From NCBI RefSeq assembly GCF_030384885.1, contig NZ_CP128613.1: a stretch of 64,000 nucleotides of DNA; one strand, written 5' to 3'. Made by a program: the position numbers and the translations under genes. Under the pieces are notes generated by a model. It was not told where the DNA came from and did not search any database. It saw only the letters and a program-made list of their open reading frames with translations. Of the stretch, positions 7,886 to 37,625 are shown in pieces (position 1 is the first letter of the stretch; every line of letters begins with the position of its first letter). The DNA is from Escherichia coli (GTDB lineage Bacteria > Pseudomonadota > Gammaproteobacteria > Enterobacterales > Enterobacteriaceae).

Positions 7886-8618
7886 TTCTGCGAACCGTAT
7901 TGCCGCTGTTTTATTCGATATGGATGGTGTCCTTATTGATTCCAATGCGGTGATTGAGCGCGGCTGGGCTGAAGGCGCACAGATGTTTGGCAAGACGCTA
8001 ACGGAAGAGGATATCGTCAGGCATATTCACGGACAGCCCGGCCCGCATACCATTCGCGCCCTGTTCAGCGACCTTTCCCTGGAAGATCAAAAGAAGGTCC
8101 AGTCACATATCATCCACGTTGAAAATACCGCTGATTACGACCCGATCCCTGGAGTTAGCGAACTTATCCAGGCGTTGCATAAGGCTGGCATCAGTGTGGG
8201 GATTGTCACTAGCGGCTGGCGGTCGAAAATCGATCGTATTATGGAGATGCTGCAAATCACGCCCTGTATTTCAGTGATTGTCGAACGTGATGATGTCGTG
8301 CGCGGCAAGCCTTATCCCGATCCTTATCTGCTTGCCGCAGAGCGGTTTCATCTTGCACCGTCCAGAACACTGGTCTTTGAGGATTCAAGAAGCGGCGTAA
8401 CATCTGCTGTTACAGCAGGCGCAATTTGTGTTGGCATCGGTACAGACAGTCTGAAAGAGTGCGGTGCCGTGCTTGCAATTACAGATTTTCGTAATGTGAA
8501 AATCACCTCACAGACAGGCGAAAAAGTAGTGATTGCCTTTACTCCAGAGCACCAGATGGAGATGGAAACTCAGAGCTCTCGTAAGAAAACATCCTGTACC
8601 ACAAGAGAAGAGTGCTAA
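7878..8618 (+). CDS. HAD-superfamily hydrolase (beta-phosphoglucomutase/phosphatase-like).
   Basis: N-terminal AAVLFDMDGVLIDS (DxDG motif I), VTSG (motif II), FEDSRSGVTSAVTAGA (motif IV). The start overlaps the hypF-like stop by 8 nt. Confidence 0.75.
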   Translation: MHSSANRIAAVLFDMDGVLIDSNAVIERGWAEGAQMFGKTLTEEDIVRHIHGQPGPHTIRALFSDLSLEDQKKVQSHIIHVENTADYDPIPGVSELIQALHKAGISVGIVTSGWRSKIDRIMEMLQITPCISVIVERDDVVRGKPYPDPYLLAAERFHLAPSRTLVFEDSRSGVTSAVTAGAICVGIGTDSLKECGAVLAITDFRNVKITSQTGEKVVIAFTPEHQMEMETQSSRKKTSCTTREEC

Positions 8619-9811
8619 TGAATATCACACAGAAGGGACGCTGGGCTGTCACTATGCTATTTTTTATCAATGGCTTCGTCACCGGAGGTTGGGCTGTGCA
8701 AATTGCACAGCTTGTACCACGCTTTGGCGTGACCGACAAAGTGATCGGCCATTTAATTCTGATCTTCGGATTCGGTGCACTAACCATGATGCCCATATCA
8801 GGCATTCTGATGGAAAAGATGGGGACACAAATCGTAACGCGTATTTTTGCCCTTGCAGCCTCCCTGGCATTAATTCCGGTTGGTTTAGCCACCACCCCAT
8901 TAGTGTTGATGCCAGCGTTATTTGTTCTTGGTGCGATGATTGGTGCCATGAATGTAGCGATGAACTCGAATGCCGTGGCGGTGGAGAGATCACTCTCACA
9001 AGCGATTTTATCCTCCTGCCATTGCTTCTGGAGTATCGGCCTATTTGCGGCGGGCTCGATAGGCGGCCATCTTGTTGAACAATTTGGCTTTTTGACGCAT
9101 ATCTTTTTGATTAGTGCCGTGGCCTTAATACTGACGCTGATTATCGCTCCGGCCATTTTTAAAGACATACAGACGGTTAAATCCACCAGCAGACAGACCA
9201 CCCGGTTGCCTCGTTCTCCGGCGATTTATCTGATTGGATTGATGGCTTTTCTGGCCATGATCCCTGAATGCGCTGTTGTTGACTGGTCGTCACGCTATTT
9301 GATTAAAAATCTCAATGCAAAAACAGAAATCGCCAGCCTTGCCTTCGCCTGCTTTGCTGTAGCAATGGCCTTGTTTCGCTTTATGGGTGACGTGATCCGC
9401 AACCGCTTCGGCGCAATATTAATTATACGAGTCTCCAGCTTACTGGCAGGCGCTAGCCTATTGTTGAGCGCACTGGCACACAATCCCTGGCAGGCGATCT
9501 GCGCATTTACCTTAGCGGGAATCGGCATCGCCAACCTTGTGCCCATTGTCTTTTCCGCAGCGGGAAATCAGCCCAATATTTCCACCAACACAGGAATGAG
9601 CATTGCCACAACCATTGGGTATTTAGGCACGCTAATGGCCCCTGCGCCTATTGGCTATATTGCGGAAATAACCGGTTTTCCAGTGGTTTATTGCGGACTA
9701 GCTTTCATGTCGGGAATTATCTTTTTGCTGGCACCACTGGTTCGGGGGGCAGAAATCTCTGTACAGCGGCAGCGAGCCTCAAACAAACACCAGAATACCG
9801 GAGCGTTGTAA
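8618..9811 (+). CDS. MFS-type transporter (about 12 predicted hydrophobic segments).
   Basis: 397-aa highly hydrophobic ORF. Its ATG overlaps the HAD stop (TAATG), implying translational coupling. Confidence 0.65.
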   Translation: MNITQKGRWAVTMLFFINGFVTGGWAVQIAQLVPRFGVTDKVIGHLILIFGFGALTMMPISGILMEKMGTQIVTRIFALAASLALIPVGLATTPLVLMPALFVLGAMIGAMNVAMNSNAVAVERSLSQAILSSCHCFWSIGLFAAGSIGGHLVEQFGFLTHIFLISAVALILTLIIAPAIFKDIQTVKSTSRQTTRLPRSPAIYLIGLMAFLAMIPECAVVDWSSRYLIKNLNAKTEIASLAFACFAVAMALFRFMGDVIRNRFGAILIIRVSSLLAGASLLLSALAHNPWQAICAFTLAGIGIANLVPIVFSAAGNQPNISTNTGMSIATTIGYLGTLMAPAPIGYIAEITGFPVVYCGLAFMSGIIFLLAPLVRGAEISVQRQRASNKHQNTGAL

Positions 9812-11793: not shown

Positions 11794-11883
11794 GGAGAGA
11801 TGCCGGAGCGGCTGAACGGACCGGTCTCGAAAACCGGAGTAGGGGCAACTCTACCGGGGGTTCAAATCCCCCTCTCTCCGCCA
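11794..11883 (+). tRNA. serU: tRNA-Ser (anticodon CGA), 90 nt with long variable arm and encoded CCA.
   Basis: GGAGAGATGCCGGAGCGGCTGAACGGACCGGTCTCGAAAACCGGAGTAGGGGCAACTCTACCGGGGGTTCAAATCCCCCTCTCTCCGCCA. The anticodon loop is CT-CGA-AA. Confidence 0.95.
11870..11883 (+). repeat. attL-type copy of the island-flanking direct repeat (3' end of serU).
   Basis: CCCTCTCTCCGCCA occurs identically at 34279-34292. Confidence 0.65.
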
Positions 11884-12161
11884 ATCATTCAACAAAATCA
11901 ATCACTTACAAAGCGTTTTTGATTTTGTCATGCATAAATCCCTGCATTAAAATTCCTTTCGCTCGCTCGATTTTTCTTACTACTGATGCTGTTTTTTACC
12001 ATTTTGCTGCGCGTCGGGCATCCACTTTTATGCTCTCGAGTTCACACTCTTAACAACAACTTAGCCATTCCCCCGTTTCTAATGACAAAACAGTTGAACT
12101 TCAATTGTTCCAAACGGATCCTGTGAAGATATATCAAAGGAAATGGATTGTTGGAGGATGG

Positions 12162-14459: not shown

Positions 14460-14840
14460 TAAGTGTTCAACCAAAATTTTTTAGAATGTAGTATTACGAC
14501 CAATCGCAATAACATGTGGCATTTATGTATTCAGAAATCTGCTGATATGGAGGTCAACAGTTGTCTCGTGCATCTGCAACCCCCGTGGGATAATGGTGGG
14601 TGTTAACATCTGATTATCAAGAGAATGAGCATTCCCGAAGAAAACATAGAGTCTTTAAACGCGGTTTCGTTTGGTCATTGATGAAGATCTTCACGGGTAT
14701 GGCAGCCTATTTGTTTGTGAAAGAAAACATTATTTTTCAAATGGTTAGTGTAAATGATGATAACACGTCATGTGATCATAACTTATTGATCTTCTAGTTT
14801 TTTTGTGCATAATCCATAATATGAGTACTTAGTGGAACTT

Positions 14841-16682
14841 ATGATGGATTTTTTATATCAGGAATTAGCAAAAGCAGGGATAGCACTTTCTGTCAAAGAG
14901 CTTTTCACTCGCGTGGTATCTGCATGGGATAAAAAAAATTTAAGTGGGAAGCAACTTGTTAGAGAGTTGACTGGTTCAGAGGTATATCTGAACTATCTTG
15001 AGAAACATGTAGCAAGAGTGGTCCGACTAAGAACGATCCATAGTGCTGATTATGATATTCTGCTGACTAATTTATATCATCCATTAGGTATCACATCTTT
15101 ATCTCCCGGTGCAACTGAACATAAAGTCAATGACGGCTTCTATATAGAAAATCAACATATTACTAATATCATAGGAATAGCAGGGCAAGGGAAAAGTACT
15201 ATTTTAAGAAAACTGTTCATAGAACAAATAAAGAATGGAACAAAAATACCATTTTTTATTGAATTACGTAGAACTGGAAATGATGGGATCATTAAATCTC
15301 TTGAAAATACATTAATCAATCTTGGATTATACCCGACGTCCCAAGCAATTGATGAATTGTTATTTAGTAATAAAATATCTTTAATGTTAGATGGATTTGA
15401 TGAGGTCAACTCAAAGCAAAAAGATATTTTACTAAGTGAGATATTGATGCTAAACGTAAAATATGCATTGCAAGTAATAGTTACGTCGAGACCGGGTACA
15501 ACTGTTTGCAATGAACCATCAATTGTTAATTATAAAGTCGAAAAACTTAAAGAAAAAGACATACTGGCAATTATAGAAAAACTCAATACTAACAATGGAG
15601 TTATAGACAAAGAACAATTGCCGAAAATAAAAGATACAATTAAAAATAACAAAAATCTTGTTTCTGTGATGACTTCACCTATTCTGGTAACGCTTTTTCA
15701 TGTCTGTTATCCATTCATGGATATTATCCCCAATAATACAGTAGAATTTTATTCAAATCTGTTTATGACATTATATCTTCGACATGACAAAGTTAAAAAC
15801 TTTGACCGCGAAAAATCTTCCTCTTTAAGTCATAATGAAGCATATGACTGTTTCTGTACATTATGTTTTTACTCAATTTATACGAATAATCATGAATTTA
15901 CAGAGCAGTCACTAAATGAATATACAGAAAAATCAATGAAGTTAAAGGGACGGTTTGGTGAATGCAAAGCGGAGTCATTAGCTCAGGATTTTATTAATGT
16001 AACTTGTTTAATTCAGCGAGAAGGCTTTAATAAATATATCTTTATTCATAAATCGATTCAAGAGTATCATGCAGCAGAATTTATAAAAAATATATCATCA
16101 GATCAGAAAAATAAATTTTATAGTTTTCTTGTTGAAGATATTAAAAAAAATGAATTACGATTTTCTAATGTTATAGTATTCCTTAAAGAAATAGATGTCA
16201 TAGATTGTGCTAAATTCTTAATTATTCCACTGTGCGAATATTTTGGCGTTTCAAAATGGAATGCTTTGACCCCATTGGAATACAAGGATTTATTACGTAC
16301 ATTTTTCTCCGATACCTACATTCATTTATTTAATGACATTAATGATAAAGATATAATGGGGTTCAGTTCATTATCAGGGGTTAGTGGCTGGATGCAATTA
16401 TTAGATATCAGCGGCAATAATGATTTATATACGCCTGTGTTTGAAGTGTTAATAGATGAATCATTGTCAAGTGCGAATTTTAAAGATGTTGTAACCAGTC
16501 AAGATCGGCAAATGGTAAAAGTTTCATTTATGAAGGCAATAATACAATTAGGGATTGAAGACAAAATAGTTGAAGTGTTTATCAAAAATATTAAGAAAAT
16601 ACATAACGAAGTATATTGTGAAGCCATTAATAAAGTAAATAACGAGGATGTTAGTATTAAGGAGTTCTTTGATCTGATTTAA
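14841..16682 (+). CDS. NACHT-type STAND P-loop NTPase (bacterial NLR-like; candidate antiphage sensor).
   Basis: Walker A is IIGIAGQGKSTILRKL. Walker B is ISLMLDGFDEV. The NACHT-typical VIVTSRPG follows about 30 aa later. A C-terminal region of about 300 aa has no recognisable domain. The gene is very AT-rich. Confidence 0.7.
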   Translation: MMDFLYQELAKAGIALSVKELFTRVVSAWDKKNLSGKQLVRELTGSEVYLNYLEKHVARVVRLRTIHSADYDILLTNLYHPLGITSLSPGATEHKVNDGFYIENQHITNIIGIAGQGKSTILRKLFIEQIKNGTKIPFFIELRRTGNDGIIKSLENTLINLGLYPTSQAIDELLFSNKISLMLDGFDEVNSKQKDILLSEILMLNVKYALQVIVTSRPGTTVCNEPSIVNYKVEKLKEKDILAIIEKLNTNNGVIDKEQLPKIKDTIKNNKNLVSVMTSPILVTLFHVCYPFMDIIPNNTVEFYSNLFMTLYLRHDKVKNFDREKSSSLSHNEAYDCFCTLCFYSIYTNNHEFTEQSLNEYTEKSMKLKGRFGECKAESLAQDFINVTCLIQREGFNKYIFIHKSIQEYHAAEFIKNISSDQKNKFYSFLVEDIKKNELRFSNVIVFLKEIDVIDCAKFLIIPLCEYFGVSKWNALTPLEYKDLLRTFFSDTYIHLFNDINDKDIMGFSSLSGVSGWMQLLDISGNNDLYTPVFEVLIDESLSSANFKDVVTSQDRQMVKVSFMKAIIQLGIEDKIVEVFIKNIKKIHNEVYCEAINKVNNEDVSIKEFFDLI

Positions 16683-21432: not shown

Positions 21433-21640
21433 ATGTTATCTGGTTAATAATTTTCTTATGTAATATTATCTATGCCATCTGGCTATGTTTTCAATTGTTT
21501 TAGTTCTCGACAACTGTTTTTATATCCAGTATGATTTTACTCGTATCCGGCAGAATATTTTTAGATGCTGTTTCATGAACTCCGGTTGAAAGGTTTATTC
21601 TCTACTTTTGGGAATAATAGTTAAAATGGAGATAAGTGTA

Positions 21641-23077
21641 ATGACGTTTAGTAATGAAATTGAAGTTTTCATAAAAGATTTTGTTAAAGATCTTGAAAAT
21701 GATTGTGCTGCTATTTTTTCTGGCGCAGGAATGTCTAAAAGTCAAGGTTATGTTGATTGGAAAGAATTACTTAGCGATATAGCAGAAGAACTTAGTTTAG
21801 ACATTAATAAAGAAGACGATCTAATATCGCTTGCTCAATTTCATGTTAATGAAAAGAAAGGGGCTACAAAACTCACAAGGAAGATAATCGAAGAGTTTTC
21901 TGAGCAAGCCGAGCCATCAGAGGTTCATAATATAATTGCTCGTTTACCGATTAAGACATTTTGGACAACAAACTATGACACTTTAATTGAAGATAGTCTG
22001 CGGAAAGTTTACAAAATTGCAGATGTAAAAAGAAACATAGATGATTTAAATACAACACGACCTAAGCGAGACGCGATAGTATATAAAATGCATGGTGATA
22101 TTTCGTCCCCATCCAAGGCTATTTTATATAAAGAGCAGTATGAAAAATACTACAGAACACACGCTTCATTTATCACCGCACTTAGCGGAGATTTAATATC
22201 AAAAACCTTTCTATTCATAGGGTTTAGTTTTACCGACCCAAATCTGGATTACATTTTGAGTCGTTTGTATACTCATTCTGGGGACAAGAGGACACACTAT
22301 TGCTTTATGAAGAATGAGGCTAATAATTCCCTAGATGATGAAGAAACAGTAAATTATAAGATCAGAAAACAAAAACTGCGAATCGATGATCTCAAGAGAT
22401 TTGGTATACAAGTATTATTAATAGATGAATATTCTGACATCCCTAAAATTCTAGCTAAGATAGAGCAATCATTTAAAAAGAAAACGATATTTATTTCTGG
22501 TAGTGCAGAAAAATATGGGGATCTTGAAAGACCTAAAGCATTAGATTTTATTCACACATTAGCATATGAGATTATAAAGAATAATTATAGGATAGTGAAT
22601 GGATTTGGATGGGGCGTCGGAAGTTCTGTGATAAATGGTGCGTTGGATGCAATTTATAGTAGGCCAGATAAATTATCAGAAGAACAGCTCATTGTTAGAC
22701 CATTTCCACAAACTGTCAGTAAGGGGAAAGATATTCAAGAACTTTGGGAGGAGTATAGACAGAGAATGATTCCTCTTGGTGGTATTGCATTGTTTATTTT
22801 TGGAAATAAACAAGAGGAAAATAATGATATAGTTAATGCTAGGGGAGTATTTAGAGAGTTTGAGATTGCTGTTCAACATGGCCTTGTACCAATTCCTTTA
22901 CCCAATACCGGGTATATGTCTAAATATATATTTGAACAAATATCACAAGATCCTAAGAAATATTATGGAAGTAATGAATGGATATATAATGATTTGTCTG
23001 AGCTTACTGAAAAAGATTTTTCGGTAAAAAAAACAATAGAAGTTGTAATAAAAATCATAAACAAACTGAATAAATAA
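21641..23077 (+). CDS. thsA: Thoeris ThsA: N-terminal SIR2-like NADase domain plus C-terminal SLOG-like ligand-binding domain.
   Basis: SIR2-type motifs are IFSGAGMSKSQGYVDWKELL, FWTTNYDTLIE, IVYKMHGDIS and LFIGFSFTDPNLDYI. The C-terminal half has IFISGSAEKYG...NGFGWGVGSSVINGAL (SLOG/LOG-like). At about 478 aa it is close to my memory of the Bacillus ThsA size (roughly 475 aa). Confidence 0.85.
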   Translation: MTFSNEIEVFIKDFVKDLENDCAAIFSGAGMSKSQGYVDWKELLSDIAEELSLDINKEDDLISLAQFHVNEKKGATKLTRKIIEEFSEQAEPSEVHNIIARLPIKTFWTTNYDTLIEDSLRKVYKIADVKRNIDDLNTTRPKRDAIVYKMHGDISSPSKAILYKEQYEKYYRTHASFITALSGDLISKTFLFIGFSFTDPNLDYILSRLYTHSGDKRTHYCFMKNEANNSLDDEETVNYKIRKQKLRIDDLKRFGIQVLLIDEYSDIPKILAKIEQSFKKKTIFISGSAEKYGDLERPKALDFIHTLAYEIIKNNYRIVNGFGWGVGSSVINGALDAIYSRPDKLSEEQLIVRPFPQTVSKGKDIQELWEEYRQRMIPLGGIALFIFGNKQEENNDIVNARGVFREFEIAVQHGLVPIPLPNTGYMSKYIFEQISQDPKKYYGSNEWIYNDLSELTEKDFSVKKTIEVVIKIINKLNK

Positions 23078-23093
23078 TATATTAGGTGAAGTT

Positions 23094-23705
23094 ATGGCTC
23101 ATGAAACATTCATATCATATAAATATAGTGAAGCACAGGATTTAAGAGACAAAATTGTCAAGGCATTAGGAGATGACGCTGTTTACTATAAAGGGGAGAC
23201 ATCGGAGTCTCCTGATATAAGTAATACAACAGTAGATAATATAAAGAACAATCTTAAAAATATGATTTTCGGGACATCTGTTTTAATTGTTATTATTTCC
23301 CCGAATATGATTAAAAGTAAATGGATTGACTGGGAAATTGAATATGCATTGAAAGAATACAAGAGAGGAGGAACCACTTCCCGAACTAATGGCATTGTTG
23401 GTGTGATAATGAAGGTTAATAATAGCTATGACTGGTTAGTATCTTCTTCAATCAAGCCTGATGGATGTTCATCAAGAACTATTGATACAACTAAACTATA
23501 TGACATTATTAATAATAATAGGTTTAATTTAACTTCAGAAGATAAATATTGTTGCCCTGAGTGCAAATCATATGATCAATTGACTGGTTCTTATATTTCA
23601 TTGATAGAAGAAGACCGATTTTTAGCAGATGTATCTTCATACATTGAAAATGCCTATGAGAAATCTAAAAAATTAAGTTCCTACGATTTATATAAACAAA
23701 AATAG
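23094..23705 (+). CDS. thsB: Thoeris ThsB: TIR-domain protein.
   Basis: FISYKYSEAQDLRDKI... and ...SVLIVIISPNMIKSKWIDWEIEYAL give a TIR-like fold with the conserved Glu in WEIE. It lies 17 bp downstream of thsA on the same strand. Confidence 0.8.
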   Translation: MAHETFISYKYSEAQDLRDKIVKALGDDAVYYKGETSESPDISNTTVDNIKNNLKNMIFGTSVLIVIISPNMIKSKWIDWEIEYALKEYKRGGTTSRTNGIVGVIMKVNNSYDWLVSSSIKPDGCSSRTIDTTKLYDIINNNRFNLTSEDKYCCPECKSYDQLTGSYISLIEEDRFLADVSSYIENAYEKSKKLSSYDLYKQK

Positions 23706-31759: not shown

Positions 31760-31921
31760 ATTGGATTTTCAATAAATGATATATTATTTAATAAATGTCT
31801 TTTAAAGATATTCACTTCAATGAAGTATCTGATTGCCCATATATGGGGAGTGGTTTACAGCCCAATGGGTTGATTCTGTCACCCCAACTTTGCAAATGTT
31901 GAAGGAGTATTCTATCGAGAA

Positions 31922-31937
31922 AGGGCCGTGAGGCCCT
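31922..31937. terminator. Hairpin between the convergent pilV and TIR-like genes.
   Basis: AGGGCC-GTGA-GGCCCT followed by TTGTTTC. Confidence 0.5.
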
Positions 31938-31966
31938 TTGTTTCTGAGAATTATCTTGGATTTTGT

Positions 31967-32797
31967 CTAAATTATATTATTCATATCTATTGAATATCCT
32001 GCCTCTTTTAATTCTCTTGCTAAACGCATTTTCCACCCTTCATTAGAGTCTATTTTTTCATACGTAATACCAAGAGCATCAGTTGGAATTTCGATATCTC
32101 CCTTTATGAGAACCATTGTTTTTTCTCTACCTAACAATGCGGTAAAATATCCAAGTTCGAGAATGACATTCTGACGGGCTCGAAGGCTTTTATTTTGCTC
32201 ATTGTTAATCGGGTATCCATAATCATCGGGAGTCATCAAGATTACTGCAAAACCCGCTCTTTTTGCAAACTCCTGAAACTTTTCAATTATGGTCATTCCT
32301 TTGTTTATTTGCTCTTGTAAAATGACGGGTTCAACGCCCAGTTTTTCTAGAAATCTCGCAACTGAATGTTTTGTGCCTTCATCATGACCATGAACTAAAA
32401 AAACTGAATTACTTTCAGGTAATTCGGTTTTTAATTCTGATTCATCAAATTTTTCGGCAGTGAATACACCTTCAGTTCCAATGCTAGATCTCCATTTACC
32501 TCTTAATTTATTATTATTGACTAAGCTACAAATTACCGTAACTTTCCCTAACATAACCATCGGGTTTTTATTTCCGGGAGTTAGTTCAATAAACAGGTTT
32601 TCGCTTATTTTTCCTGAAATACTGTATTCATATGCTCCAAGTGCAAGTTCATGTATCTTCGCTGAACCGCTTACATTATTACCGTCTACATTTAGAGTAA
32701 AACTAATCCCACCTTGGTTGGTTCCGGAGATATCACCAGTCCAATAGCCTGAATATACATCATTTAGCATATAACTCCCCTCGCGATAATATTCCAT
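31967..32797 (-). CDS. TIR-like nucleotide-binding/NADase-type protein of the CAP12/PycTIR kind, with an unrecognised ~130-aa N-terminal domain.
   Basis: The C-terminal half (VFLVHGHDEGTKHSVARFLEKLGVEPVILQEQINKGMTIIEKFQEFAKRAGFAVILMTPDD...RARQNVILELGYFTALLGREKTMVLIKGDIEIPTDALGITY) matches the remembered consensus of the TIR-like effector domain seen in CBASS Cap12 and Pycsar PycTIR. Confidence 0.65.
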   Translation of the reverse strand: MEYYREGSYMLNDVYSGYWTGDISGTNQGGISFTLNVDGNNVSGSAKIHELALGAYEYSISGKISENLFIELTPGNKNPMVMLGKVTVICSLVNNNKLRGKWRSSIGTEGVFTAEKFDESELKTELPESNSVFLVHGHDEGTKHSVARFLEKLGVEPVILQEQINKGMTIIEKFQEFAKRAGFAVILMTPDDYGYPINNEQNKSLRARQNVILELGYFTALLGREKTMVLIKGDIEIPTDALGITYEKIDSNEGWKMRLARELKEAGYSIDMNNII

Positions 32798-32896
32798 GTG
32801 AATGTTTTATTATTGCAACATACGTCGGATCGTAGCGTAATTATCAATTTAGTATACATTCGAAAAAACGTTTAGCCTTCAACCTCCATTATTTCA

Positions 32897-34114
32897 CTAT
32901 TTACAGTAATCAGTCCACTCATCCATCAGTGCCACCCGCTTAGGCCATAACGTCCCACGTTGATACGCAGCCTCTGCCTTATCTGCCAACTGGTGAGCTA
33001 ACGCATGTTCAATTACTTCACGCGGGTAGTTGGTCGTTTCACCAGCCCAATCACGGAATGTCGATCTAAAACCATGCTGCGTTAAATCTGTGTATCCCAT
33101 TCGTTTTAGGACTGCCAGTAAAGCCGTATCCGAGAGTTGTCCCTTCCGAGTGGCAGGGAATACAAAATTGATACCCTTAAAGCGTGGTAAAGCCTTTAAC
33201 AGGACAACAGCAGCATCAGACAGAGGAACTCGATGCTCCTTCGCTGCTTTCATTCGGCTTGCAGGTATGGTCCACGTTTTACCTTCAAGATCGATCTCTG
33301 ACCACTCGGCACCACGAATTTCTCCTGAGCGTGCCGCGGTCAGTATGGCAAACTCAAGCGCACGAGGCGAAACGCCGCTTCGTTCACGTAGTTCTTTCAT
33401 AAAGGAGCCGATCTGGTTATAGGGAAGAGCGGCATGGTGCTTGGTGATCTGAACTTTACTTGGCTGAGGCAACAGAGGTTTCAACATACCTTTCCATGCG
33501 GCAGGATTATCACCTTCAAAGTATTCTTTGGCCTTAGCGTAATCAATCACCGTTTCAATACGTCCACGTAGACGACTGGCGGTTTCATTCTTGGTTAACC
33601 AGATAGGTTCCAGTATTGCCAGAAGATCCACTTTGGTGATTTCACTAACGGCCTTTTTGCCAATGAAAGGGTAGGCATAGGTCTCCAGTGTGGAACGCCA
33701 TTGAGCGAGATGTTTTTTGTTCTTCATCTCACTGTCTTTGACTTCCAGCACTTCTTCACAACACTCGGCAAAGGTCTTTTTCTTCCGGGCCAGTATTTCC
33801 TGCCGGGATTTTTGCTCGTGTTTTTCTTGAAGGGGATTAATACCATTACGGATTTGTTTACGTAGCTCACGCGCTTTGTCACGCGCTTCGGCTAAGGAGA
33901 CTTCCGGGTAAGGGCCAAGCCCCATATTCAAACGTCTTGGAACTGTTCTACCGAGATTGTTGATTCGGGTTCCCATAGCTACACAAAGAACCCATGCACG
34001 GGACTGATTCCGGATGCGAAGGTATAAACCATCCACACCACCTACGGCATACATACCTTCGGATTTTAATCGTGATACGACGAGTCCTGAGAGTTCCTTG
34101 GCCTTCTTTGGCAT
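32897..34114 (-). CDS. int: P4-type tyrosine integrase (DUF4102 arm-binding N terminus plus catalytic domain).
   Basis: GLYLRIRNQSRAWVL...LGPYPEVSLAEARDKARELRKQIRNGINP in the N-terminal part. The catalytic residues are in ...LTAARSGEIRGAEW..., HGFRSTFRDW and ALAHQ...AAYQRG. Confidence 0.9.
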   Translation of the reverse strand: MPKKAKELSGLVVSRLKSEGMYAVGGVDGLYLRIRNQSRAWVLCVAMGTRINNLGRTVPRRLNMGLGPYPEVSLAEARDKARELRKQIRNGINPLQEKHEQKSRQEILARKKKTFAECCEEVLEVKDSEMKNKKHLAQWRSTLETYAYPFIGKKAVSEITKVDLLAILEPIWLTKNETASRLRGRIETVIDYAKAKEYFEGDNPAAWKGMLKPLLPQPSKVQITKHHAALPYNQIGSFMKELRERSGVSPRALEFAILTAARSGEIRGAEWSEIDLEGKTWTIPASRMKAAKEHRVPLSDAAVVLLKALPRFKGINFVFPATRKGQLSDTALLAVLKRMGYTDLTQHGFRSTFRDWAGETTNYPREVIEHALAHQLADKAEAAYQRGTLWPKRVALMDEWTDYCK

Positions 34115-34278: not shown

Positions 34279-34292
34279 CCCTCTCTCCGCCA
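34279..34292 (+). repeat. attR-type direct repeat of the serU 3' end.
   Basis: CCCTCTCTCCGCCA is identical to 11870-11883. It lies 165 bp upstream of the integrase start. Confidence 0.65.
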
Positions 34293-34851
34293 CTTTATCA
34301 ATGACTTATCTCCTAACTTCCCGCCTTGCTTTTTCTTAACAGAACAATCGTAGAATATTCTTGAAGGGTTAGATCGTCACTGTTTTCTGTTCGATACTGT
34401 GACATTCAGCACTTGATTCGCTATGGATCAGACAGGAAGGTTTCGAGCGAAAATCTACTGTTATTCAGTCGTTTTCTTATCGGTCACCATTATTCTTCTC
34501 ATCTTATGCTTTAGATATTGATCCTATGAAACCGATGTTACGTTAGTGGGCGGGAACTGAAGTTACGGAGTAAAAGGGTTAATAATTGAGCCAAAAAAGG
34601 AACGCGGCCGTCAGATTAAAGCCGCGGGACAAAGTCCATAATTTCCAAGAGTTGTTGAATTTCCCAGCTTTTTTGAAAGCCTTTGTATCATACTAACAAG
34701 TAAAAAAGGTTTAAATACCAAAATTAACCTATATTTCTGGTTAGCTTTACCATGACAGATGACTTGCTCCTGGAGACATTGGCGCTACCAGTCTGTATTG
34801 GTGAGTTGTGTATTTATTGTTCGCCGTTTCCTCAGTTTTTTTCTACAGACA

Positions 34852-34887
34852 TAATAAAAAAGACACGTCTCAAGCATGAGCGTGTCT
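34852..34887 (-). terminator. zinT rho-independent terminator.
   Basis: On the minus strand, AGACACG-(13 nt)-CGTGTCT is followed by TTTTTTATT, about 90 nt after the zinT stop. Confidence 0.55.
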
Positions 34888-34975
34888 GAGTTTGTCTTAT
34901 TTATTTGTCTTGGTAAATTATTGTCGTTACTACCAGGCACTGTTCTGTTAAATAACTGAAGTCAGCGCAAAAAAA

Positions 34976-35626
34976 TCAATGAGACATCATCTCCTCGACC
35001 ACTTCTTCGCTACTCAACTGATAGGGATAATACGTTGGCCAGTTTTCCATTTCATTCAATAAAGATTGCTGTGAATCATTACCCATAAAAATGTGAAAAT
35101 GAGATGATTTTCGTGGTGCAATTATATGATCGCTAAACTGTATATATTTAGGAGCTTTGCTTTTAGGATCTTTACATTCGAATAAGTAACGAACGCCTTT
35201 CTTGCCTGATTTATAGGTGAGTATTTTGTAGCCATCGTAATCATATTTACAGGATGTAGTTTCGTTATTTCTATGGAATTCAACAATGCCGTCCTCAATA
35301 CCAATCATTTCGATATCTGTCGCGTAGCCTTTCTGATAATAATCTTTAACTTCTGCGAATGTTTTGGTTTTATCTGCATTCGCTTTCTTTCGAAAGACGG
35401 GGTCAAGCTTGCCATTTTGCAGTAAGGGATAAACGGATTGCCAGACTCCATCCCAGTCACTGAGCGTTCGGTTTTGTACATTGGCATCATCAAAAACACC
35501 GTTAGCCGCTTTTTGTTCGACCTCTGTTAGGGGGTTACCGTGTGAGTGATGACCATGCGAAAAGGCAGGACCGCTAACAATAAATACACCTAAAGCAATA
35601 GCCATTTTATGAAGACGAATCGCCAA
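34976..35626 (-). CDS. zinT: Periplasmic zinc/cadmium-binding protein ZinT (YodA).
   Basis: [60 protein letters not shown]... is recognised. The apparent start is TTG with GGAGGA upstream. Confidence 0.9.
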
Positions 35627-35662
35627 AACAGTTTCCTCCAGAGTTATTGTACATGATGTGTT

Positions 35663-35679
35663 ATGTTATATTGTAACAT
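35663..35679. promoter_or_regulatory. Zur box in the zinT promoter.
   Basis: The palindrome ATGTTATATTGTAACAT fits the Zur consensus core (TGTTATA.TATAACA) and lies about 40 bp upstream of the zinT start. Confidence 0.7.
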
Positions 35680-35817
35680 ATGACGAAATGCAATAACTTT
35701 TAGGAAACAAGAGCATAGTTTTCTCAGGTGTATTTACCTATCTTATTGAAATGAAATAAATTATGTCGATGATTTGAGGTTGATGACAAACGAAACATAA
35801 CTTGATGCGATCTGTGT

Positions 35818-35851
35818 GGGCCGGATAAGGCGCTCACGCCGCATCCGGCAG
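35818..35851. repeat. REP (repetitive extragenic palindromic) element.
   Basis: GGGCCGGATAAGGCGCTCACGCCGCATCCGGCAG is a typical E. coli REP sequence. Confidence 0.7.
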
Positions 35852-35882
35852 GGATAACGCGTACTTTGTCGGCAATATGAAG

Positions 35883-36518
35883 TTATAGAGATAATTTGTT
35901 GTGAACCTGCTTGCGTAGCCGGTTGAAAAGGGAAAGCAACTTCTTATACCGTAAGGCTAAAAGCAGTACAGCCAGCCCTGCGTAGATGAGTGGCTGCGGT
36001 GAAATAATCTTCACTGACCACAGATAATGTATTGGGGCCAGGATCGCGACAAGATAGACGAAGTTATGCAACTGTTGCCAGTGTTTACCGAGTTTTCGTT
36101 GCATCGCCTGGGTTGAAGTGGACGCTAAAGCAAGCAAAACTACCCAGCTAATAATACCTAACGTTAAATAAGGTCGGGTGATTAACTCCTTACCTAATAG
36201 CGCCAGATTATTCACGCCCAGCTCCAGTAATGCGTAACTGGTTAAATGCAGTGTCGCCCAGGCAAAGCACCATAAGCCTAACAGGCGGCGAGTGCGTATC
36301 AATAATGGCTGCTTTGCGTAACGTGCCAGAGGTGTAACTAACAAGGTCGCCAGCAAAAATTTCAGTGCAGTGCGTCCGGTAAAATGCTGAATATCTTTCA
36401 CCGGATCGGCTCCCAGTCCACCGTGATTGATCGCCCAGGCAAGCCAGAGCAACGGCAACAATCCGGCAAGATGCAGGCAAAGTTTTAGCCATGTCACCTG
36501 TTTTGCTGTCAGACGCAT
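35883..36518 (-). CDS. msrQ: Methionine sulfoxide reductase heme-binding membrane subunit MsrQ (YedZ).
   Basis: [26 protein letters not shown]... is recognised. It lies directly after msrP. Confidence 0.9.
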
Positions 36519-37529
<1,011 letters not shown>

Positions 37530-37625
37530 TCACACTGTTTTGTCGTTAACCAGTAAGAGATTGTTAATCTGTCAGGGAGTCTCCTCCCTAACAGTAGCAG
37601 AGATCTGCTTTTACATATTTACGCA

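Follow-up and report, generated by a model that had tools for sequence, protein, structure and literature searches.

The window, the whole 64,000-nucleotide stretch of Escherichia coli DNA (contig NZ_CP128613.1) that was analysed, contains at positions 31967–32797 of the minus strand an ORF of 276 aa (stop codon at 31967–31969, from the ORF list and the sequence) that places an N-terminal β-barrel ahead of a TIR domain. This barrel-TIR gene rides on a 22.4-kb mobilizable island integrated at serU, where it occupies the slot adjoining the integrase. The left end of the island is marked by attL, the 3' end of tRNA-Ser(CGA) (CCCTCTCTCCGCCA; 11870–11883, plus strand), located by the tRNA call and by an exact 14-bp repeat, with the island beginning at 11884. 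The right boundary is attR (34279–34292, plus strand), the exact 14-bp repeat of the tRNA-Ser 3' end, and E. coli chromosomal homology restarts at 34279. The immediate upstream neighbour of the barrel-TIR gene is the island's P4-type tyrosine integrase (32897–34114, minus strand; Pfam Arm-DNA-bind_3, Phage_int_M, and Phage_integrase), as a sequence-only reading of this DNA had stated. In addition to a NACHT protein, the island encodes a complete type I Thoeris system, in which ThsA1 (21608–23077; 672 bits) lies 17 bp upstream of ThsB (23094–23705). The earlier reading had drawn attention to this ThsB as a signal producer 9 kb away in the same island; it is indeed present, 8.3 kb from the barrel-TIR gene and on the opposite strand, but it belongs with its own ThsA. 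The companion claim, that the island is free of cyclases, was borne out by a Pfam scan that detected no SMODS/CD-NTase or nucleotide-cyclase domain in any of the 21 island ORFs of at least 100 aa. In the E. coli version of the island the same slot holds a different gene, and the barrel-TIR gene may travel as swap-in cargo, here in the integrase-adjacent slot and elsewhere at the moron site of P2-like prophages.

The true product of the gene is probably shorter than the full ORF. Because homologues begin at the second methionine (M10) in the alignment, and because a strong Shine-Dalgarno sequence read from the DNA, GAGGGGAG (32775–32782, minus strand), precedes the ATG at 32770 by 4 nt, the likely coding sequence is 31967–32770 (minus strand), which would specify a protein of 267 aa. 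A sigma-70 promoter-like site, TGGACT-18-AATAAT with a TG (32888–32917, minus strand), overlaps the 3' end of the integrase gene; picked out in a consensus scan by its match to the consensus alone, it is a candidate for a promoter of the gene's own, from which the barrel-TIR gene would be expressed. Downstream, between the convergent pilV and barrel-TIR genes, the sequence can be read as a GC-rich hairpin, AAAGGGCC-GTGA-GGCCCTTT (31920–31939), followed by GTTTCT (31920–31945 in all, plus strand). A terminator hairpin at this flank had been reported, and the hairpin itself is present. Its T-tail, however, lies on the plus strand and is poor on the barrel-TIR gene's own strand, so that it would mainly terminate transcription of the convergent pilV. 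The element may be a plus-strand intrinsic-terminator-like structure, possibly with bidirectional action, and the hairpin at 31920–31939 was not called by a simple terminator scanner. The encoded protein is soluble and without a transmembrane segment, its maximum 19-residue hydropathy being 0.99.

The C-terminal half had been assigned to the Cap12/PycTIR type of TIR domain, and the motifs VFLVHGHDE, MTPDD, and RARQNVILELGYF are all present in the translation of the ORF. Profile searches bear the assignment out: residues 132–250 (32048–32404, minus strand), a putative NADase effector domain, match Pfam PF10137 (CAP12-PCTIR_TIR) at E = 2.3e-37, with 128.1 bits against a cutoff of 24.7 and coverage of profile positions 2–118 of 119. 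When compared with the PDB, the family profile recovered Cap12 (9lmq, 5e-8; 7un8, 4e-6) and PycTIR (8jsj, 3e-3), the RQNVxLELG motif of the barrel-TIR family aligning in the Cap12 matches with RDNVVFEFG, and a Foldseek search matched TIR-STING to the TIR half at E = 2e-6. Within the ILELGYF segment, E214 (codon 32156–32158, minus strand) is invariant among 59 homologues and aligns with the glutamate of VFEFG in Cap12 chains 9lmq and 7un8, which makes it the putative catalytic residue. By homology with Cap12 and PycTIR, the barrel-TIR protein is expected to have NADase activity. Some TIR domains make signalling molecules rather than destroying NAD. The TIR domain is followed by a conserved C-terminal extension (residues 251–276; 31970–32047, minus strand; EGWKMRLARELKxAGF; entropy 0.93 bits), which is helical in the AlphaFold2 model and falls within the coverage of the PADLOC PDC-S35 models.

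For the N-terminal domain, AlphaFold2 confidently predicts an eight-stranded up-and-down β-barrel (residues 17–116; 32450–32749, minus strand), a putative sensor domain with no Pfam family, whose eight antiparallel strands have a pLDDT of about 90 in the full-length model and, when the barrel is modelled alone, a pLDDT of 91.7 and a pTM of 0.82. A variable linker of low confidence (residues 117–131; 32405–32449, minus strand), evident as a dip in pLDDT and an entropy of 2.0 bits, joins it to the TIR domain. A profile search of the PDB with the barrel returned noise only, and a Pfam search with 30 barrel sequences at E ≤ 10 gave only a weak, spurious match to TFIIIC_sub6. The barrel is a previously unannotated domain that matches no curated family. 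Sixteen residues of the N-terminal domain are invariant across the 59 homologues, and the conservation is one-sided: of the two mouths of the barrel, assigned from the predicted meander topology, one has an entropy of 0.89 bits and the other 2.15 bits. In the model, the conserved mouth would be built from the β1–β2 (GTNxGG), β3–β4 (EPxLGxYEY), and β7–β8 (WxSxIGTEG) hairpins. GTNxG and WxSxIGTxG are invariant in both the TIR and the transmembrane (TM) classes of barrel protein. A direct sensor of phage proteins, which evolve fast, would not usually be conserved to this degree from phylum to phylum.

The barrel is not peculiar to this protein. An exhaustive HMM search of a protein database found it in 434 cluster representatives, nearly always at the N-terminus, so that the sequence-only description of a β-rich domain that could not be placed holds with respect to curated families, but not with respect to the domain's novelty. 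Counted by cluster, its fusion partners are TM effectors (49), PF10137 TIR domains (18), TIR/NDT-like domains (8), KAP NTPases (6), and TIR_2 domains (5), with DUF4062-TPR (P0126) and a Ser/Thr kinase as further partners; three types of TIR domain are combined with it. The barrel is a modular N-terminal domain reused before different effectors. The barrel-TM proteins form the largest class and are likewise stand-alone, their context having been surveyed in 46 loci drawn from a closer subset of the class. Viewed from the TIR side, the wider PF10137 single-gene superfamily, which the PDC-S35 models match, carries at least 18 unrelated N-terminal forms, the barrel being found in 8 of 108 surveyed hosts. 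A homotypic adaptor pairing, of the EAD-like kind, with a second barrel on a neighbouring NTPase was considered and rejected for this locus, as no second barrel was found in six frames of the window or in the surveyed loci, and a double barrel match at one locus (L159) proved to be a single gene broken by a frameshift.

The 120 best database matches to the barrel-TIR protein are all full-length, at 57–97% identity, and matches of 57–72% identity over 95% of the length come from Proteobacteria, Verrucomicrobia, Planctomycetes, and Acidobacteriota, labelled by the database sources merely as 'nucleotide-binding protein'. None of 5,426 complete E. coli genomes contains the gene. Compared to a Klebsiella orthologue, dN/dS is 0.027 (65 synonymous and 9 nonsynonymous differences); taken separately, the barrel gives 0.10 and the TIR domain ~0. 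The barrel-TIR gene is intact and under purifying selection.

That the gene stands alone had been proposed from this locus, together with a survey of homologue contexts, and homologues prove to be solo throughout 115 loci. The only recurring items there are the gene and the shadow ORFs antisense to it; no neighbour family recurs, the next commonest being found at 7 of the 115. The annotated contexts are solo as well, with a single, non-adjacent class III cyclase in 1 of ~25 (L124). Two independent cases were found in which the homologue is a moron of a P2-like prophage. At another locus (L014) the homologue lies in a defence island that also contains ApeA, a separate TIR, an integrase, and a RelA/SpoT-like gene, and here a ThsB-like TIR lies 640 bp from the homologue, whereas other homologues have no ThsB nearby. 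Some homologues adjoin toxin-antitoxin modules and defence genes. Many others are surrounded by housekeeping genes and not by an obvious defence island, and for that reason the association with defence is anecdotal. The family is common on enterobacterial prophages, integrative elements, and plasmids, where current defence finders would detect it via its TIR half alone.

Taken together, we judge that the barrel-TIR gene is rather more probably than otherwise a single-gene sensor–effector NADase of the abortive-infection type, the reading favoured here among the three that had been offered. A trigger would bind the N-terminal barrel at its conserved mouth, and would most likely be a small molecule or nucleotide that is itself conserved; a component of the phage or the host, likewise conserved, is a less likely candidate. 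Binding would alter the oligomeric state of the protein, the resulting oligomer would bring the PF10137 TIR domains together as an active NAD+ hydrolase with E214 as its catalytic residue, and depletion of NAD+ would halt the infected cell. The proposal of activation through oligomerization draws on the analogy of TIR-STING, PycTIR, and Cap15, and we also infer a role in defence and a trigger that is a small molecule or nucleotide. Against this reading stand the high conservation of the barrel across phyla, the many homologues outside defence islands, and the fact that known TIR effectors with a ligand-binding domain normally have a dedicated signal synthase, whereas the barrel-TIR gene is without one. 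If the sensor–effector model is true, the gene is a compact one-gene immune switch of 267 aa that couples a known TIR killing domain to an undescribed sensor, and hundreds of clusters reuse the same sensor before effectors of the membrane, NTPase, or kinase type, without a signal-making partner. Identifying the ligand of the barrel would explain how signal-type effectors can function when they lack a cyclase of their own, and may uncover an infection cue that is new, or else a housekeeping nucleotide that is guarded in the manner of Panoptes.

The strongest competing explanation, although we regard it as unlikely, is that the protein is gated by a signal supplied in trans, with the barrel acting as receptor, its ligand being a nucleotide second messenger produced by an enzyme encoded elsewhere, and the TIR domain adding an NADase output to the signal of another system. 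The signal could come from the CD-NTase of a CBASS system, from a Pycsar cyclase, from a Thoeris ThsB (that of the island, ~8 kb off, among them), or from a phage enzyme. Conservation across phyla suits a chemically invariant ligand, and the TM and TIR partners of the barrel mirror the effector sets of Pycsar and CBASS. The version proposed earlier, in which the effector answers to ThsB, draws on the ThsB in the same island and on the ThsB-like TIR of the defence-island locus; it is weakened because the window's ThsB has its own ThsA and nearly all homologues have no ThsB nearby. Within ±6–8 kb of the gene, neither the 115 TIR loci nor the 46 barrel-TM loci show a recurring signal synthase, and the homologues occur in P2-like prophages and in genomes of many phyla, which cannot be presumed to supply a matching synthase.

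Structural comparison bears both on the sensor–effector reading, for which it would suggest a ligand-binding fold, and on the trans-acting signal. Judged from the predicted model, the barrel has its best natural structural counterpart in the Cap15 cyclic-dinucleotide receptor barrel, to which it may be homologous; the top BFVD viral structural matches include an S-2TMβ protein (TM 0.67), and a GxWxGxI motif in β1 is common to the barrel and OptE. With hhalign, the comparison of the barrel with Cap15/OptE gave a probability of 7.5% and an out-of-register alignment for the single sequence, but 30% and an in-register alignment for the family profile. The score was reached by none of 100 column shuffles and by 8 of 100 block shuffles, which indicates that it rests mostly on one motif. 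PF18153 matched neither the protein at E ≤ 1 nor the 30 barrel sequences at E ≤ 10, Cap15 is not in the top 50 of a Foldseek search of the PDB, and sequence similarity to the S-2TMβ barrel is not significant.

A somewhat more doubtful proposition is that the barrel is an assembly domain, that is, a constitutive oligomerization module, a scaffold, or an autoinhibitory cap, and that activation comes from elsewhere, through a phage protein acting on the TIR domain or the C-terminal helices, through a change in expression, or through proteolysis. TIR NADases need oligomers, and in PycTIR it is the N-terminal domain that mediates them (PMC11224242), while the barrels of Cap15 and OptE oligomerize themselves (PMC12657230). 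Very different C-terminal partners are also what would be expected of a generic assembly module, and the conserved residues 251–276 could be the true interaction surface. Against this, the conservation is concentrated less on the strand faces of the predicted barrel than in three hairpin loops around one of its mouths, which looks more like a binding pocket, and the many unrelated N-terminal forms of the PF10137 single-gene superfamily are as expected of specificity or sensor domains.

A broader proposal, which we hold only as a speculation with much the same standing as the assembly domain, is that the barrel defines a new family of immune proteins (barrel-TIR, barrel-TM, barrel-KAP, and barrel-kinase), each a stand-alone receptor–effector that is synthase-free and monitors a universal nucleotide or metabolite. 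No dedicated synthase would be needed in such a family, because the molecule monitored would be universal. In one version the ligand would be a molecule generated by phages; in the other, which is Panoptes-style, a housekeeping cyclic nucleotide would keep the effector inactive, and its depletion by phage sponges or nucleases would release that block. If the proposal is true, signal-based immunity can operate without a synthase, and the Cap15-like barrel is a broadly reused immune receptor fold.

It is improbable that the gene has no immune function and is instead a nucleotide or NAD enzyme, a regulator, or an addiction or toxin module with a barrel that senses a metabolite. Its cross-phylum conservation is high and housekeeping-like, 'nucleotide-binding protein' is the sole source annotation, and several homologues sit among metabolic and housekeeping genes without defence neighbours. 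Its distribution, however, is patchy and mobile, as its absence from complete E. coli genomes illustrates, it is cargo of an integrative element and a prophage moron, and toxin-antitoxin modules and defence genes adjoin some homologues. To our knowledge, every characterized PF10137 TIR protein is an immune effector, and no antitoxin-like partner recurs in the 115 loci. The last of the earlier readings, an orphaned, decaying effector from a former CBASS or Pycsar operon, could appeal to a TIR family otherwise known from the effectors of those systems and to the absence of a cyclase from the island, but is effectively refuted by the low dN/dS, by full-length, highly conserved homologues in many phyla that are solo in the 115 loci and recur as a prophage moron, by an N-terminal domain that is not STING, SAVED, or CNBD, and by the finding that homologues, which the sequence-only reading would have expected for a relic to lie consistently inside CBASS or Pycsar operons, are never in them among the loci examined.

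Of the systems to which the barrel-TIR protein can be compared, PycTIR of Pycsar (PDB 8jsj) is similar in its PF10137 TIR family (PADLOC PycTIR, E = 1e-8), in its size (~270–310 aa), and in its order of N-terminal sensor and C-terminal TIR. Binding of the ligand at the N-terminal domain of PycTIR leads to oligomers or filaments in which the TIR NADase is active (PMC11224242). The PycTIR sensor, however, is a CRP-type cyclic-nucleotide-binding domain with a six-stranded barrel and five helices, whereas the predicted domain here is an all-β eight-strand meander; Pfam finds no cNMP_binding match in the protein, and a PycTIR-like CNBD identity was rejected because the fold differs (PMC11224242). 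PycTIR also adjoins the PycC cyclase, whereas the barrel-TIR gene has no partner. Cap12, or TIR-STING, of CBASS (7un8 and 9lmq) provides the closest solved TIR domain, and its R-x-N-V-x-x-E-x-G catalytic motif is kept here. The TIR domain of Cap12 is N-terminal and that of the barrel-TIR protein C-terminal; no STING or SAVED domain is found in the protein by Pfam, there is no CD-NTase in the island, and the NCBIfam Cap12 equivalogs score below their cutoff of 450 (NF050171, 39 bits; NF050172, 34.8 bits).

All five models of the PADLOC candidate single-gene family PDC-S35 match the C-terminal ~155 aa, which take in the TIR domain and the helices after it, at E = 1e-45 to 6.5e-68, and the best match (E = 6.5e-68) spans profile positions ~110–262 of 264, the N-terminal ~110 positions of the models being unaligned. 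The stand-alone gene without a conserved partner is a feature shared with PDC-S35, and because PADLOC lists the TIR half under that name, the TIR superfamily had been flagged earlier as a defence candidate. A literature search returned no paper on PDC-S35, which is a computational candidate, nothing relevant for COG4271, and no experimental data for the barrel-TIR family. Papers on PF10137 leave out stand-alone TIRs or handle them phylogenetically only.

Cap15 and the Panoptes effector OptE (S-2TMβ; PDB 7n34; PF18153) have, as here, a minimal eight-strand barrel with the β1 motif described above. Their barrel governs effector oligomerization (PMC12657218, PMC12657230), and a TM effector is also the commonest partner of the N-terminal barrel described here. 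For the S-2TMβ barrel, fusion to two transmembrane helices is described as obligate and the partner as a CD-NTase or mCpol, whereas the barrel here is soluble, TIR-fused, and synthase-free. The domain order is also reversed, the barrel being N-terminal and without the two N-terminal transmembrane helices. Evangelion (DUF4062) resembles the barrel-TIR gene in being a single, mobile-element-borne gene with a TIR-like core and a diversified auxiliary region, and its depletion of NAD+ and abortive infection have been shown experimentally (bioRxiv 10.64898/2026.06.25.731849). The cores differ, being DUF4062 in Evangelion and PF10137 in the barrel-TIR protein, as do the auxiliary regions, but the two overlap in P0126, where the barrel is fused to DUF4062-TPR, from the core family of Evangelion.

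The open reading frame at 31967–32797 (−) encodes 276 aa and contains all of the motifs quoted in a sequence-only reading, which had assigned its C-terminal part to the TIR domains of the Cap12/PycTIR type. That assignment is borne out by a Pfam match of residues 132–250 to PF10137, the 'CAP12/Pycsar effector TIR' domain (E = 2.3e-37, 128 bits versus a cutoff of 24.7), and on sequence grounds the C-terminal half is unambiguously a PF10137 TIR domain. Furthermore, the family profile matches the solved TIR-STING chains of Cap12 (9lmq at 5e-8, 7un8 at 4e-6) and PycTIR (8jsj, 3e-3), and the family motif RQNVxLELG, whose glutamate (E214) is invariant in 59 homologues, lines up with RDNVVFEFG of the Cap12 chains. 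Because the protein reaches 39 and 35 bits with the NCBIfam Cap12 equivalogs, whose cutoff is 450, it is judged to have the TIR domain in common with Cap12 yet not to be Cap12. No hydrophobic segment was found in it. The product is probably 267 aa, because homologues begin 9 residues downstream of the first Met of the ORF and a second ATG at 32770 is preceded by a strong ribosome-binding site, GAGGGGAG (32782–32775, read from the sequence).

An AlphaFold2 model of the full protein, with an input alignment of 59 sequences and a mean pLDDT of 83, has eight successive antiparallel strands forming an N-terminal domain (residues 17–116, pLDDT ~90), a variable linker of low confidence (117–131), a TIR-like α/β domain (132–250) and conserved C-terminal helices (251–276). 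Modelled alone, the N-terminal domain reached a pLDDT of 91.7 and a pTM of 0.82. In Foldseek searches with the whole model the matches of the two halves were cleanly separated, the C-terminal half retrieving TIR-STING (E = 2e-6) and the N-terminal half, a predicted eight-strand β-barrel, retrieving designed fluorescence-activating barrels (TM up to 0.83), lipocalins and nitrobindin.

One of the best BFVD matches of the barrel is a viral S-2TMβ protein (TM 0.67, 18% identity), and the barrel has the β1 motif GxWxGxI in common with that of VnOptE, the sequence of which came from the supplement of PMC12657218. A 'Cap15-like receptor barrel' is a lead and not a classification, with homology not established, because Pfam PF18153 gives no match to the barrel, Cap15 is not among the best 50 Foldseek matches against the PDB, and hhalign of the barrel family against the S-2TMβ family returns a probability of 30% over 52 in-register columns, its score of 25.3 being reached by 0 of 100 column shuffles and 8 of 100 block shuffles. 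As published, the S-2TMβ family always comes fused to two TM helices, with a CD-NTase or mCpol as partner, and its ligand alters oligomerization, activating the effector in Cap15 and inhibiting it in Panoptes OptE/2TMβ (PMC12657218, PMC12657230).

One rival to a single-protein sensor–effector is a trans-acting effector, which would answer a signal made elsewhere. The sequence-only reading had named a ThsB in the same island as a possible source of that signal; the gene is present (ThsB1, 23094–23705, +, 285 bits) but, because a full-length ThsA1 (SIR2 + STALD/SLOG, 672 bits) starts at 21608 (+) and ends 17 bp upstream, it forms a complete type I Thoeris pair with that gene (21608–23705, +). 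The sole ThsB-like neighbour at nine further barrel–TIR loci, a separate 353-aa TIR_2 protein, is another resident of a Pusillimonas defence island (L014, 198–10637), ordered ApeA (HEPN), SEC-C-motif protein, RelA/SpoT-like synthetase, barrel–TIR, TIR_2 protein and P4-type integrase, and there, as in the window, the barrel–TIR gene is integrase-proximal. A Pfam scan found no CD-NTase/SMODS or cyclase domain in any of the 21 island ORFs of at least 100 aa, as had been claimed; the window holds no second copy of the barrel, and none of the 71 neighbours listed at the nine further loci is a cyclase. The only cyclase seen near any homologue is a class III nucleotide cyclase (L124, 11392–12765, −), 2.6 kb away on the opposite strand with three genes between, a single occurrence that is probably coincidental. 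Across 115 barrel–TIR loci from one-genome-per-species and viral collections, the only recurrent families are the gene and its own antisense shadow ORFs, with the next commonest at 7 of 115, and the gene is consistently solo there.

The N-terminal domain had been called novel as well as β-rich. It is without annotation, with no PDB sequence match and with 30 sequences drawing no Pfam family at a threshold as loose as E ≤ 10, yet it is not unique: when 1.84 billion cluster representatives were searched exhaustively with an HMM, 434 proteins carried it, 206 of them at E ≤ 1e-10, and its position was nearly always N-terminal. The region after the barrel in the best 150 of the 434 matches was clustered and representatives were scanned, giving a barrel-TM class with a ~130-aa middle region and 2–3 C-terminal transmembrane helices (49 clusters, ~345 aa), the barrel–TIR family with PF10137 (18), a CBASS-effector-like TIR/nucleoside-deoxyribosyltransferase-like partner (8), QatA/PifA-like KAP P-loop NTPases of 710–1070 aa (6), ThsB-like TIR_2 (5), a second TM class (5), and single cases of a PDC-S60-like DUF4062+TPR partner (P0126) and a PD-T4-6-like Ser/Thr kinase (P0141). 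This partner range is that of a regulatory or sensor module ahead of exchangeable immune effectors. One KAP NTPase of 1070 aa (P0122) carries two barrel copies. The commonest architecture, that of P0165 and relatives (alignments A3 and A4; loci L126, L128-L207), places a conserved middle region between the barrel and 2–3 C-terminal TM helices in ~345 aa; it has no Pfam or PADLOC match and may be an uncatalogued membrane effector of the single-gene type. It is stand-alone, likewise lacking a recurrent neighbour (46 metagenomic loci), and at its one annotated locus, L126, it adjoins ParE/Phd and integrases.

The other half of the protein is also widely shared. From bacteria to archaea the TIR with its C-terminal helices (~150 aa) keeps ~50% identity, and the ~100–160 aa ahead of it take at least 18 unrelated forms, one of which is the barrel, present in 8 of 108 hosts. 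Five PADLOC PDC-S35 models match the TIR half only (E = 1e-45 to 6.5e-68); a literature search on PDC-S35 found nothing, and a recent systematic TIR study explicitly left out stand-alone TIRs.

In both the TIR and TM classes GTNxG (β1–β2 hairpin) and WxSxIGTxG (β7–β8 hairpin) are invariant, and within the TIR class mean entropy is 0.89 bits over the three hairpins of one meander end versus 2.15 bits at the opposite end. Assuming the predicted topology, a binding site at one barrel mouth would be expected to give such one-ended conservation, and the pattern speaks against a second rival, in which the barrel mediates assembly only. Because the mouth is very highly conserved across phyla, a chemically conserved ligand is argued for rather than a fast-evolving phage protein, and the absence of a synthase points to phages or core host metabolism as its source.

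A third rival, a non-immune role, can draw on the 71 neighbours at the nine further loci, the majority housekeeping with a few defence genes, and on Opitutus, where the homologue is solo amid metabolic genes. Set beside these are the Methylovulum homologue, which adjoins a ParE toxin–antitoxin pair, and two independent P2-like prophages (L003/L004 and L122, both 8001–8804), in which the barrel–TIR gene is a recurrent moron with tail-completion gene S on one side and baseplate gene V on the other, its proteins being ~70% identical to that of the window. Two homologues lie in small variable patches, and one lies 3' of gyrB, adjoining DUF4917 and Bro-N genes. The weakest rival, a relic (the orphaned effector of the earlier reading), is essentially excluded, being refuted by a dN/dS of 0.027 against the Klebsiella orthologue (65 synonymous and 9 nonsynonymous differences; barrel 0.10, TIR domain ~0) and by full-length homologues, 57–72% identical, in Gamma- and Betaproteobacteria, Verrucomicrobia, Planctomycetes, Acidobacteriota and others.

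The gene resides in a 22.4-kb integrative mobilizable element at serU (11884–34292), bounded by an exact 14-bp att repeat of the tRNA-Ser(CGA) 3' end (11870–11883 and 34279–34292); the Klebsiella homologue is carried by the same element. The same island occurs in 48 complete E. coli genomes (~82% of it at ~95% identity). Because these islands hold a VOC-family gene between pilV and the integrase, and the barrel–TIR gene is in 0 of 5,426 complete E. coli genomes, it is a cargo gene swapped into a variable slot next to the integrase. The element also carries a MobA/MobQ relaxase, RepL-like and H-NS-like genes, a PilS-type pilin and a PilV shufflon tip adhesin, with no pilus assembly machinery or shufflon recombinase seen in the island. 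A 616-aa NACHT-domain protein (14832–16682, +; Pfam E = 4e-10) has no PADLOC match and may be an uncatalogued NLR-like defence gene; its position is a second variable slot, since the E. coli island has H-NS and DUF6404 genes there. The chromosomal flank (34279–37600; zinT, msrQ, msrP) is 90–95% identical to most E. coli and 100% to strain 2013C-4282, and by this divergence the host is assigned to a divergent Escherichia lineage.

The sequence-only description was correct, and its preferred direction, a single-protein sensor–effector, is the best-supported model. A trigger would bind at the barrel mouth, the oligomeric state would shift, and the PF10137 TIR domains would form an active NADase, leading to abortive infection. 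The protein would be a variation on known systems, a TIR NADase gated by a ligand or sensor, whose putative β-barrel sensor is undescribed yet widely reused and which lacks a signal synthase, and the most interesting point is what the barrel senses. Each step has a precedent among characterized systems: in PycTIR it is a ligand domain that brings about filament assembly and switches on the NADase (PMC11224242), TIR-STING is a precedent for a step of the model, a barrel governs oligomerization in Cap15 and OptE, and Evangelion is a single-gene, TIR-like system (bioRxiv 10.64898/2026.06.25.731849).
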